In this document: positions 36,736 through 41,595 of the stretch, one piece after another
Numbering within the stretch: the first letter of the stretch is position 1
Layout: the number at the start of each line of letters is the position of its first letter
Position numbers and translations under genes: made by a program
From: an uncultured Nitratifractor sp.
GTDB taxonomy: Bacteria > Campylobacterota > Campylobacteria > Campylobacterales > Sulfurovaceae
Direction of reading: 5' to 3'
Length of the DNA: 64,000 bases
NCBI GenBank assembly: GCA_913054475.1
Contig: CAJXJF010000001.1
Span: forward strand, 787 to 64,786
Notes under the pieces: generated by a model
The model's input: the letters and a program-made list of their open reading frames with translations, nothing else
Databases searched by the model: none
What the model was told of the DNA's origin: nothing

Positions 36736-39700
36736 ATGAGAAGATATCTATTGCGGATTGTGTCGATAGTGATACTGTTTGTCGATATGAGTGCAAAGAC
36801 TCTCGTGGTCGATAACAACAGTGGGCCATTTCCTATGCCCTTTCCTATGTGGAGTTGCGAAAACGGGGATTTTGGATGCTTCGGGATAACGCACATGCAA
36901 CCGAATTGCAACTTCTCCACCATCTCGGAGGCTCTGGAATTTCTCGAAGAGGGCGATACTATTCGTATCTGCCCTGGAGATTACAACGAATCTGGTCTCA
37001 AAATCGATAAAAACAATGTACTTTTGCAATCTACGACGGGAAAGACGGAAGATGTGCATGTGGGTACGGGCACGGGAGAAGATATATTCATACTCGATGG
37101 CTTCAGAGAGGGTGTGAGCTTCGACTCTTTTACGATAAAACAACAATCCTCCTCTGCTGCGGCTATCGTTGTGAATGGAGGCGAAGATATCCAATTCGAT
37201 AGACTCTCGATCGAAAGTGAAGGTTACGGTATAGATCAAAATTCGTCAAATGTAAGCAATCTCGATACTTTTAGCATACATGAGAGCAATATAAGTAGCA
37301 AAAAGAGCTCTTTGAGACTGATTATGCCGGAGAATCTCGAAATCACTTCGGTTCGCATGAGCTCCGAAGAAGATTACGCCATCTATCTGAAACAGCCTTC
37401 GGGAGATGTGAACATATCTGCCGACAGCGCCTCGAGAAACACTTTTAGCTCTCGCTCATCTTGCATATATCTCGGAGAGACTTCCCACAACTACTATATT
37501 TCACATTCCGATTTCAACATCACGGGTGTGAACTCGGCCGCCGTCACTTTCGACAAGAGCGACAAGCTCGAAATCTACGATATCAGCGTCAATGCGAACA
37601 ATAAGGGCGTCGGTGTCTGGAGTAGCGGAAGTGTCAGTGGAGATTTCAGTCTCAAAGATAGCAGTATCGACAACTCCAAGAACGAAGCGCTCTATATCGC
37701 GAAGGTAAACGGCAAGGTTCACATTACCGACAACAATATAAGCGGTGCGGGTTATGCGGCGATCTACCTGCCAGATGTCGCCAACGGCGGCGAAATAGAG
37801 AGAAATCTCATACGAAAAGCAGACTATTACGGCTTGCTGCTCTTGAACGACAGTGTATCGAGAAGTTTCAAGATATATCACAACTGTTTTATGCAAAACG
37901 GCATCGCAAATGCCCTCAGCAGAGATACGGATGGCCATTTCGACGACGGTTCCAAAGGAAATTTCTGGGACGATTGGTGTATGGACGGAAGATACGAGAT
38001 AGCCGATATCCCGAAATATGACGAACATCCGATGAGAGAGTGCGACTTGATAGGCAGCTGTACTCCGGTAGAGGGACTCAAGATGAGTACCTACGACATC
38101 TCTTCATATACGGAGCACTTTCCGGATAATCATGAGGAGTTCGAATCCCTAGAAAAAAATTACGCGATCGATTCGGCTAAATTCGGACAGGGAGTATTTT
38201 CGAAAATCGATACGACCGGCAACAACAACAATCCCTTTCATGACGGAACCGACGATAAATATCTAACTATTTTCGAGGGTTTTATCGATATTCCTTCTGA
38301 TGGCAACTATAGCTTCGCCATAAACGGAGACGATGCAGTAGAATTGATAATAGACGGAAAGTGGTACGGCGGCTGGTACTCTGATCATAACAGTGACGGA
38401 ACCGATCACAATGTCAGTTTCATCCTCGATGCCGGCAGGCACAGTATCAAATTCAGACATCAGGATTGGCTTGGTGATGACAGTTATCAGCTATATTGGA
38501 AAAAACCAGGAGATGACGACTACTCCATAGTGCCTTCCGATGCCTTTACGCACTGCTCCATCCCCTTGGCGAAAGTCGATTACAGGATGGATGATTGCAA
38601 CTGGAGCGATGGCCACTCCGATGTGAGAGATAGTAGCGGCAACGCCTACGATGCGACCTCCTATAACGGAGCCCATACAATCGACCCGACGGGCGCTTCT
38701 GGAGTCTGCAGGGTCGGAGCGTTCGACGGTGTCGACGACTATATAGATACGCGAAATTCTTTCGACTTTCCGCAAAATCAATTTACGGTCACGGCATGGA
38801 TCTATCCTCGAAGCGATACGAGCGGGAGGACTCTTTTTATTCAAAGCGACAAGAGTGATCGCAGTGACGGTTTCGGTTCGGCTTTCGGAACCGACGCGAA
38901 ACTCTATTTCTATGTAGGAGATTGGTCTTCGCACAAGGTGGGAATTTCGGTAGATACGAACAGATGGACACATATAGCCGTCACATATGATTCGAATATG
39001 ATGAAGATATATAAAAACGGTCGGCTCGCAAGCTGTCCGCTTAGAGCCAGAGTCGATATCGACTCTGGAGCGAATTTGCTCATAGGCGACAGTATCGCCG
39101 GAGGCGAAGGTGCAGGAGACGATCTATGGAAGGGTTATATCGATGAGTTCAAAATCTTCGATACCGCTTTGGATGCGACCGATATCGAAGAGATATACAA
39201 TTACGAAAAGAGCCGTAGAAACTATGACGGCTCGGCGCGTTATTGTCAGCACTGTGCGATTACACCTTCATGCGATTCCCTTGTGCAGGGTTTGAAGTTG
39301 ACGACCTACGATATATCCTCGTATGAGCAGAGCTATCCATACTGTCATGAAGATTACGATGATCTCGAGAACCGATTCGCAAGCGCTTCGAATAGATTCG
39401 GAGCAGGCTATGTGGATGAAATAGATACGAGCGGGAACAACAACAATCCGTATCATGACGGAGATGACGACTTCTATCTCTCGATATTCGAAGGCTATAT
39501 CTATACCGAAGAGGGTCGATACTCGTTTGCCGTCAACGGTGACGATGCGGTAGAGCTAATTATAGACGGAGACCCCTATGGCTGGTACGGAGGACATGCC
39601 GGTAATGGCGGAAGCTCTCACAATAGAATATATCCCATGCAAAAAGGATACCATAGTCTAAAATTCAGACATGAAGATAGACAAGGTGGCGACAACTATC

Positions 39701-41595: not shown

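Follow-up and report, generated by a model that had tools for sequence, protein, structure and literature searches.

What does a 1619-amino acid (aa) modular protein do at the head of a type IV pilus operon? The question arises in a 64,000-nucleotide stretch of DNA (the window) from an uncultured Nitratifractor sp. (Campylobacterota; GenBank assembly GCA_913054475.1, contig CAJXJF010000001.1, positions 787 to 64,786 of the forward strand), where an uninterrupted open reading frame (ORF) with an ATG start, on the forward strand at 36736..41595, encodes a large pilus-associated protein. A model that had only the sequence (the sequence-only reading) described it as a secreted protein with a beta-helix, two PA14 domains and a LamG domain, and placed it first in a pilus operon. 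Our best reading is that the protein would be a functional counterpart of MshQ, PilY1 and PilC. It is probably a tip-docked modular adhesin, the large non-pilin subunit of a Campylobacterota pilus like the mannose-sensitive hemagglutinin (MSHA) type IV pilus. We favour this answer because of a conserved terminal hexapeptide on a disordered leash, coupling to minor pilins that include a member without Glu5, and distant homology to the DUF6701 family.

Tip proteins determine what a type IV pilus sticks to. To our knowledge PilY1 and PilC are the only tip proteins investigated in detail, and MshQ is so far no more than a 'putative adhesin'.

The C-terminal stalk and tail

The part of the protein for which the sequence-only reading had no name is the part that defines its family. 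The C-terminal ~600 aa indeed gave no match in local copies of Pfam or NCBIfam, and a profile of the C-terminal family gave none among PDB sequences, but the region belongs to a large family: an exhaustive HMMER search with it returned 655 cluster representatives at E ≤ 1e-3, and for 196 the E-value was under 1e-30. The match reaches the last residue in nearly all of these representatives, which are proteins of 600-2370 aa. Judged by its sequence, the window protein belongs to a large, modular family that extends across Campylobacterota and branches from DUF6701.

The region has two parts. The DUF6701-related, family-defining stalk (aa 1013-1585, 39772..41490, forward strand) consists of several Ig-like beta-sandwich domains according to AlphaFold2 (AF2), Foldseek and HMMER. 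AF2 used 29 sequences to model aa 1013-1619; the model is all-beta with a predicted local distance difference test score (pLDDT) of 87.8 and a predicted template modelling score (pTM) of 0.76, and its Foldseek neighbours are the Ig-like domains of PrgB, invasin, FdeC and macroglobulin domains. The last 34 residues (aa 1586-1619, 41491..41592, model residues 574-607) form a disordered tail with pLDDT <50. A tail left disordered beside a confidently modelled stalk is the pattern expected of a strand that folds only on its partner.

The tail ends in the hexapeptide GIKVFR-COOH (41575..41592, forward strand), which we propose as a donor beta-strand. It is strand-like, with alternating hydrophobic residues, and it is conserved: the pattern G-[VILM]-[KR]-x-[FYLM]-R closes 151 of the 168 relatives sampled, and these 151 all have Gly at -6 and Arg at -1.

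Two other explanations of the tail were rejected. An outer-membrane beta-signal does not suit a fold that is Ig-like rather than a barrel, nor a terminal Arg in place of an aromatic residue. A sorting tag of the PEP-CTERM/LPXTG type would need a hydrophobic segment, which the tail does not have.

The tail also contains an RGD tripeptide (RRGDF, aa 1600-1604, 41533-41547). One branch of the family has a related motif, [DS]-R-G-[DENT]-[YFH], at ~12 residues from the C-terminal end, and the RGD is therefore probably structural rather than an integrin-type motif.

Relationship to DUF6701 and MshQ

The stalk is connected to DUF6701 through intermediate relatives. One of these (P0028) matches the window protein's C-terminus at E 8e-32 and Pfam DUF6701 at 1e-26. 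DUF6701 was matched by 5 of 45 relatives scanned, and ~15 relatives carry the precomputed family PF28247, named 'DUF6701_3rd'. Because P0028 and other relatives match DUF6701 or DUF6701_3rd, the C-terminal module appears to be a divergent DUF6701 branch; its homology to DUF6701 is transitive but, on these sequence comparisons, solid. DUF6701 is presumably the C-terminal module of MshQ, whose domain composition in Pfam and InterPro we take to be Laminin_G_3 plus DUF6701.

The DUF6701-positive relatives have another ending, ...K-L-N-W in place of ...K-V-F-R. DUF6701 is also found as the C-terminal module on unrelated surface cargo, in ice-binding proteins (PMC11645318). A tblastn search of plasmids with the C-terminus and with P0028 gave no match.

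The cluster names of ten relatives are 'hypothetical' or evidently wrong, and in the literature searched we found no study of this C-terminal family in Campylobacterota. For annotation, it is the 'hypothetical' C-terminus that is the informative part of such proteins.

The N-terminal domains

An independent ENA metagenome scaffold of 52.8 kb encodes an identical full-length copy of the 1619-aa protein among the same neighbouring genes, so the frame at 36736-41595 is no artefact of the window; the ORF is intact, as had been described. Its N-terminus reads as a Sec-type signal peptide (aa 1-20, 36736..36795, forward strand), cleaved between MRRYLLRIVSIVILFVDMSA and K, in which sequence inspection found no lipobox Cys. 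The mature protein would begin with KTLVVD. Around the cleavage site the sequence aligns with the signal peptides of P0002 and P0003, two relatives; relatives read A/KTIIVD and A/RTIVVG there (the slash marks cleavage).

The first domain, at aa ~21-440 (36796..38055), is a right-handed parallel beta-helix by Pfam, AF2 and Foldseek. Beta_helix (PF13229) matches aa 243-390 with E 1.7e-11 and 44 bits against a cutoff of 25.9, a match that appears only when the N-terminal 447 aa are scanned separately, and the AF2 model of aa 1-447 is all-beta with pLDDT 91 and pTM 0.88. Then come a first PA14 domain (aa 448-612, 38077..38571, best stretch aa 500-599), a LamG domain (Laminin_G_3, aa 613-850, 38572..39285; Pfam core aa 664-817, E 2.4e-27, 96 bits) and a second PA14 domain (aa 851-1012, 39286..39771), all on the forward strand. 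PA14 (PF07691) matches in two stretches, one in each copy, with 50.1 bits against a gathering score of 24, and the two copies share 56% identity. A GLEYA match in the first copy is sub-threshold (20.7 against 26.2 bits). The Sec signal and the four domains named by the sequence-only reading were all recovered here, the domains by profile search and the beta-helix also by AF2, and the coordinates it gave them were right to within a few codons.

Two further matches were set aside. An NCBIfam match to 'TafC fimbrial protein' is sub-threshold LamG similarity to a haloarchaeal Tat-fimbria subunit and is irrelevant; a BatD match at E 0.07-0.3 was dismissed as noise.

The beta-helix brings up a different answer to our question, that the protein is a carbohydrate-active enzyme: a beta-helix lyase, epimerase or hydrolase that is targeted by its PA14 and LamG domains, displayed on the pilus or released by it, and cuts matrix or host glycans. 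Pfam, AF2 and Foldseek agree that aa 1-447 have the right-handed beta-helix fold of the PL6, AlgE and RbmB enzymes. The nearest PDB neighbours of the model in Foldseek are AlgE4/AlgE6 epimerases, PL6 alginate lyases, the Vibrio matrix lyase RbmB, a GH87 glucanase and phage tailspike depolymerases, and PA14 and LamG modules frequently accompany glycoside hydrolases. These fold matches are weak and generic, however, at E 1e-5 to 1e-3, TM 0.3-0.48 and 10-14% identity. The near-invariant residues of the beta-helix relatives (Y83, N409, C79, E85, D106 and others, from a 21-sequence alignment) show no AlgE or PL6 catalytic motif that we recognised by eye. Relatives have lectins (H-type, C-type, pentaxin, extra LamG) in the place of the beta-helix, and such interchange fits a binding cargo. 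An enzyme is in our judgement quite unlikely.

Swappable heads

Modularity was surveyed by local searches of each segment of the window protein against 172 collected proteins. LamG was found in 90 of them, the beta-helix in 22 and PA14 in 13, with beta-helix and LamG combined in eight. The order PA14-LamG-PA14 recurs in P0066, P0079 and P0166, and longer alternations of PA14 and LamG are seen in P0050, P0055, P0135 and P0154. Pfam identified further heads among the relatives: H-type lectin, C-type lectin, pentaxin, Calx-beta, NosD-like and DUF7305. A partial Hydrogenimonas protein (P0002) has the arrangement LamG-PA14-LamG-PA14, and its N-terminus opens with the same ICPG.Y.E motif as the window protein.

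The exact string of beta-helix and PA14-LamG-PA14 occurs in the window protein only, among the 172 sampled. The sequence-only reading was not aware of any characterisation of this architecture and held it to be much more elaborate than MshQ; the string is unique in this sample, but its modules are one combination of a shuffled set. The stalk and tail are constant and the head is swappable cargo. It is the C-terminal module that is conserved and defines the family, and the lectin and beta-helix part that varies.

Coupling to the minor pilins

The large gene overlaps the first minor pilin gene in the sequence AGATGA, with the pilin ATG at 41592 and the large gene's TGA at 41593-41595, which confirms the ATGA overlap noted earlier. 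Four minor pilin genes follow on the forward strand, and all four products have a class III signal and a hydrophobic N-terminal helix. Minor pilin 1 (192 aa, 41592..42170) begins MKRA/FTMLE, with Glu5 present, and is PilV/GspI/MshD-like by position; its homologs sit immediately behind the large gene in 23 loci at E<1e-20. Minor pilin 2 (294 aa, MREA/MSLLE, 42170..43054) is PilW/GspJ/MshO-like by size and position. Minor pilin 4 (155 aa, MKRG/AFSLIE, 43524..43991) has an N_methyl motif and is GspH/FimU-like by position. In the N_methyl model TIGR02532 the 155-aa pilin reaches the cutoff and the 192-aa pilin falls just under it (16.2 against 16.3 bits).

Minor pilin 3 (158 aa, 43051..43527) is the one of most concern here. 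Three of the four minor pilins have Glu5; this one (RAA/FSLII) and its 19 homologs do not. A missing Glu5 is a hallmark of the GspK/PilX/MshP class of minor pilins, and from this feature and its position we propose that the 158-aa protein is a pilin of that type. It is also our proposed acceptor of the tail strand.

The arrangement was followed across genomes with a DNA pattern for the conserved WLWY-19 aa-HPCF segment, searched in 185,579 species genomes, where ~2 matches would be expected by chance (our own estimate from information content). The pattern gave 50 stretches, all but four in metagenome-assembled genomes (MAGs) of Campylobacterota, the groups being Sulfuricurvum, Sulfurimonas, Hydrogenimonas, Nautiliaceae, Arcobacter and 'Helicobacteraceae'/Campylobacterales. 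There are 24 Campylobacterota loci with an ...FR tail and a visible gene end, and in 20 of these the first minor pilin gene starts ≤27 nt from the stop of the large gene, usually overlapping it by 1-4 nt. Loci of this layout continue with four genes homologous to the window's minor pilin genes and collinear with them, and an MshI-like gene comes next. With 20 of 24 loci so arranged, the large gene in front is the norm in Campylobacterota, and its leading the operon, which the sequence-only reading set against the end position of MshQ in Vibrio, is the standard arrangement and no peculiarity of this locus.

A Sulfuricurvum subfamily departs from this pattern (L001, L004, L005, L010, L012, L019, L022, L023, L028, L031, L032, L037, L039, L043, L048-L050). 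Its tail is YDYTPATR or TDYAPAIR instead of GVKVFR, and it has three minor pilins rather than four, distant from those of the window (E 1e-4 to 1e-8). Since the alternative tail comes with a different pilin set, tail type and pilin set appear to be inherited together.

Smaller variations of the layout were also seen. In L015 and L038 one or two ORFs of 70-80 aa lie between the large gene and the first minor pilin. Two Nautiliaceae MAGs (L029 and L035) have two large DUF6701-like genes in tandem, of which the first ends in KSVKKLNW and the next, of ~1330 aa, follows directly.

The pilus operon

The large gene heads a run of ten genes at 36736-49467 in which every junction is an overlap or a gap of ≤14 nt. 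A candidate promoter, TTGACA-16-TAGAAT (36689..36716, forward strand), lies 20 nt upstream of the ATG; it matches the consensus at 11 of 12 positions, the best match in the region, and is called promoter-like from that match. The placement of the large gene as first gene of a pilus operon is therefore upheld, the operon being a coupled type IV pilus operon of ten genes.

The window has part of an MSHA-type set of machine genes. Three assembly genes (497, 216 and 138 aa; 44006..46559, forward strand) are MshI/J/K-like by synteny; their products have no Pfam match, and homologs in the same order are present in L002, L006, L009, L011, L020, L025, L033 and L053. They are followed on the same strand by an MshE-type extension ATPase (46556..48229), which has an N-terminal MshEN domain, binding cyclic di-GMP (c-di-GMP), and a T2SSE domain, and by a platform protein of the GspF/PilC/MshG type (48232..49467).

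These genes bear on a second alternative, in which the large protein is co-transcribed with the pilins and is no part of a filament. It would be a substrate of a pseudopilus like that of the type II secretion system (T2SS), or a surface or periplasmic protein held in some other way, with the tail as a sorting signal. The ATPase scores about equally against the GspE and PilB models, the platform protein scores best against GspF, the operon has no retraction ATPase or secretin, and conserved C-terminal tags are typical of sorting systems. Yet the tail has neither the hydrophobic helix nor the basic cluster of the PEP-CTERM, GlyGly-CTERM or LPXTG type, and the C-terminal region is Ig-like and not a beta-barrel. 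The large gene has a tight and conserved translational coupling specifically to minor pilins, the MshEN domain of the ATPase is typical of MSHA pili, and related loci show the full order MshI-J-K-secretin-MshM. Further, T2SS substrates are released and are not known to need a C-terminal strand (PMC13533445). We consider this alternative unlikely.

The MshE-type ATPase gene comes next after the MshK-like gene in the window (46559/46556), with no MshM-like gene there, whereas in the related loci L006, L009, L011, L020, L025, L033 and L053 (20978-23003) a secretin gene and an AAA (MshM-like) gene come after the MshK-like gene. The system might thus be decaying or incomplete, with the large gene intact but functionless and the secretin and MshM-like genes gone from the operon. 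The ATPase gene takes the place of the secretin and AAA genes, and the 64-kb window has neither a secretin (MshL) homolog nor an MshM-like gene. On the other side, the ten genes are all intact and tightly coupled, a stop-free ORF of 4.9 kb would not persist without selection, the identical protein is present in a second assembly, and the secretin may sit elsewhere in the genome. Decay seems to us very improbable.

Proposed assembly at the pilus tip

For the tip-docked adhesin that we favour, we propose the following course of assembly. Sec would export the large protein, and its conserved C-terminal module would form a rigid stalk of Ig-like domains. The 34-residue tail, with its GIKVFR-COOH end, would add a beta-strand to the sheet of the Glu5-less pilin (43051-43527). 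The other minor pilins, made from the same transcript, would join this pair, and the complex would prime the filament and remain at its tip. From there the beta-helix/PA14/LamG/PA14 cargo would project and bind a glycan or a surface, and swapping of cargo cassettes on the constant stalk and tail would change binding specificity. We infer the tip location, the strand insertion and the ligand.

Close precedents exist. According to a 2026 study, PilC/PilY1 use their final 6-10 residues to complete the beta-sheet of a PilK-type minor pilin, and this strand addition licenses assembly of the tip complex and keeps the adhesin on the filament; AlphaFold predicts the same strand addition for MshQ with MshP (PMC13533445). 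MshQ, a 'putative MSHA adhesin', is required for normal piliation, and deletion of mshQ leaves less surface piliation in V. cholerae (PMC7096442).

Several results count against a tip-docked adhesin of this kind. The window protein gives no match to Pfam DUF6701 (PF20419) even at E ≤ 10, so that the link is transitive. The stalk is Ig-like in AF2 and Foldseek and not the beta-propeller of PilY1. In L053 three unrelated housekeeping genes lie between the large gene and the pilins. A profile of the 158-aa Glu5-less pilin found no GspK or PilX similarity in PDB or Pfam, and a secretin homolog is found neither in the 64-kb window nor at the syntenic position. The sequence-only reading had offered two functions, a pilus-associated tip adhesin or a glycan-acting protein. 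The former is the best reading, from the domains and the operon coupling; for the latter the support is of a generic fold.

Comparison with known systems

The closest likeness is to MshQ of the MSHA pili of Vibrio, Shewanella and Aeromonas. Both are large exported non-pilin proteins with LamG, encoded beside PilV/W/X-type minor pilins and with an MshE ATPase that has the c-di-GMP-binding MshEN, and the C-terminal module of the window protein is distantly homologous to DUF6701, which MshQ presumably contains. There are also clear differences. Here the large gene precedes the minor pilins, whereas the order mshD-O-P-Q puts mshQ last, and a fourth minor pilin follows the Glu5-less one. The tail is G-V/I-K-x-F-R, in contrast to the ...K-L-N-W of the DUF6701-positive relatives; the window protein has an additional beta-helix and two PA14 modules; and the host belongs to the Campylobacterota, not the Gammaproteobacteria. 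The length of MshQ itself differs among strains (PMC7439477).

PilY1 of Pseudomonas and PilC of Neisseria share with the window protein, we propose, the plan of a large tip protein whose N-terminal part binds and varies while its C-terminal part is conserved. This is a likeness without sequence homology, the gene order differs, and the Neisseria_PilC beta-propeller is absent here, with no Pfam match and an Ig-like sandwich chain in the AF2 model.

In CpaL/TadG of Tad pili and GspK of the T2SS, a C-terminal strand likewise closes the tip complex (PMC13533445), but there it comes in cis from a pilin-like protein. Here it would be supplied in trans, because the large protein has a Sec signal and not a prepilin signal.

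A distal lectin head on an Ig-like stalk is also the plan of PA14/GLEYA adhesins (yeast Flo/Epa) and of invasin and intimin, and the PA14 domains of the window keep the GDD...DG segment. Those adhesins differ in their anchor, which is the cell wall or an outer-membrane barrel, whereas the one proposed here is a pilus tip.

N-glycosylation sequons

PglB, the oligosaccharyltransferase of the Campylobacter type, has the extended sequon D/E-x-N-x-S/T. Of the 36 N-x-S/T sites in the large protein, 26 carry D or E at -2, where composition leads one to expect 16% (binomial P 7e-14); in the window's remaining ORFs the share is 22% (Fisher P 9e-8 against the large protein). The four minor pilins (41592-43991) have the extended form at 9 of 14 sites. 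The enrichment fits a periplasm-exposed N-glycoprotein, and these pilus proteins are likely, from their sequons, to be N-glycosylation substrates outside Campylobacter. A sequon immediately precedes the conserved tail, inside the final 18 residues, in 114 of 168 relatives; at this place the window protein reads RGDF.

Joined together, these features may describe a plug-and-play tip display in Campylobacterota, with a constant stalk and G-V/I-K-x-F-R strand, one Glu5-less pilin and hundreds of swapped heads, many of the proteins being N-glycosylated as well, with a sequon close beside the docking strand. We offer this joint reading tentatively, as a real possibility but somewhat less likely than not. 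In its boldest and most adventurous version the beta-helix head would be an active glycan-cleaving enzyme on the pilus tip.

The value of the finding lies in the invariant docking tail and the series of cargoes and not in the particular domain string. The family is a natural series of hundreds of cargo swaps on a single constant anchor, and its short, near-invariant C-terminal tag makes licensing by beta-strand addition testable far from the model organisms. It may also give a handle on how the sulfur oxidisers among the Campylobacterota in vents, sediments and groundwater hold on to minerals, mats or hosts.

Flanking and other genes of the window

Upstream of the operon lies murG (35612-36631), with a terminator-like hairpin and T-run at its end (36604..36630, forward strand; 7-bp stem with 5 GC pairs, tail CCTTTCTTTA). 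Downstream, two convergent pilin genes on the reverse strand (49580..50505; 147 and 156 aa) are candidate major pilins. Directly downstream of these is a gene for a GGDEF diguanylate cyclase with a long N-terminal region (50692-52533); taken with the ATPase's MshEN domain, it suggests that c-di-GMP controls the pilus locally.

Further upstream, 30749-33993 encodes an OmpA-like peptidoglycan-binding lipoprotein and, after it, a 744-aa protein with bacterial thrombospondin type 3 (TSP3) repeats. The latter has a weak match to the FISUMP domain and is a probable surface protein encoded just upstream. The region 11104-16688 encodes two paralogs with PilJ-type N-terminal sensor domains, a 253-aa protein of no assigned family, and a 1063-aa hybrid histidine kinase with NIT, HisKA, HATPase and receiver domains.

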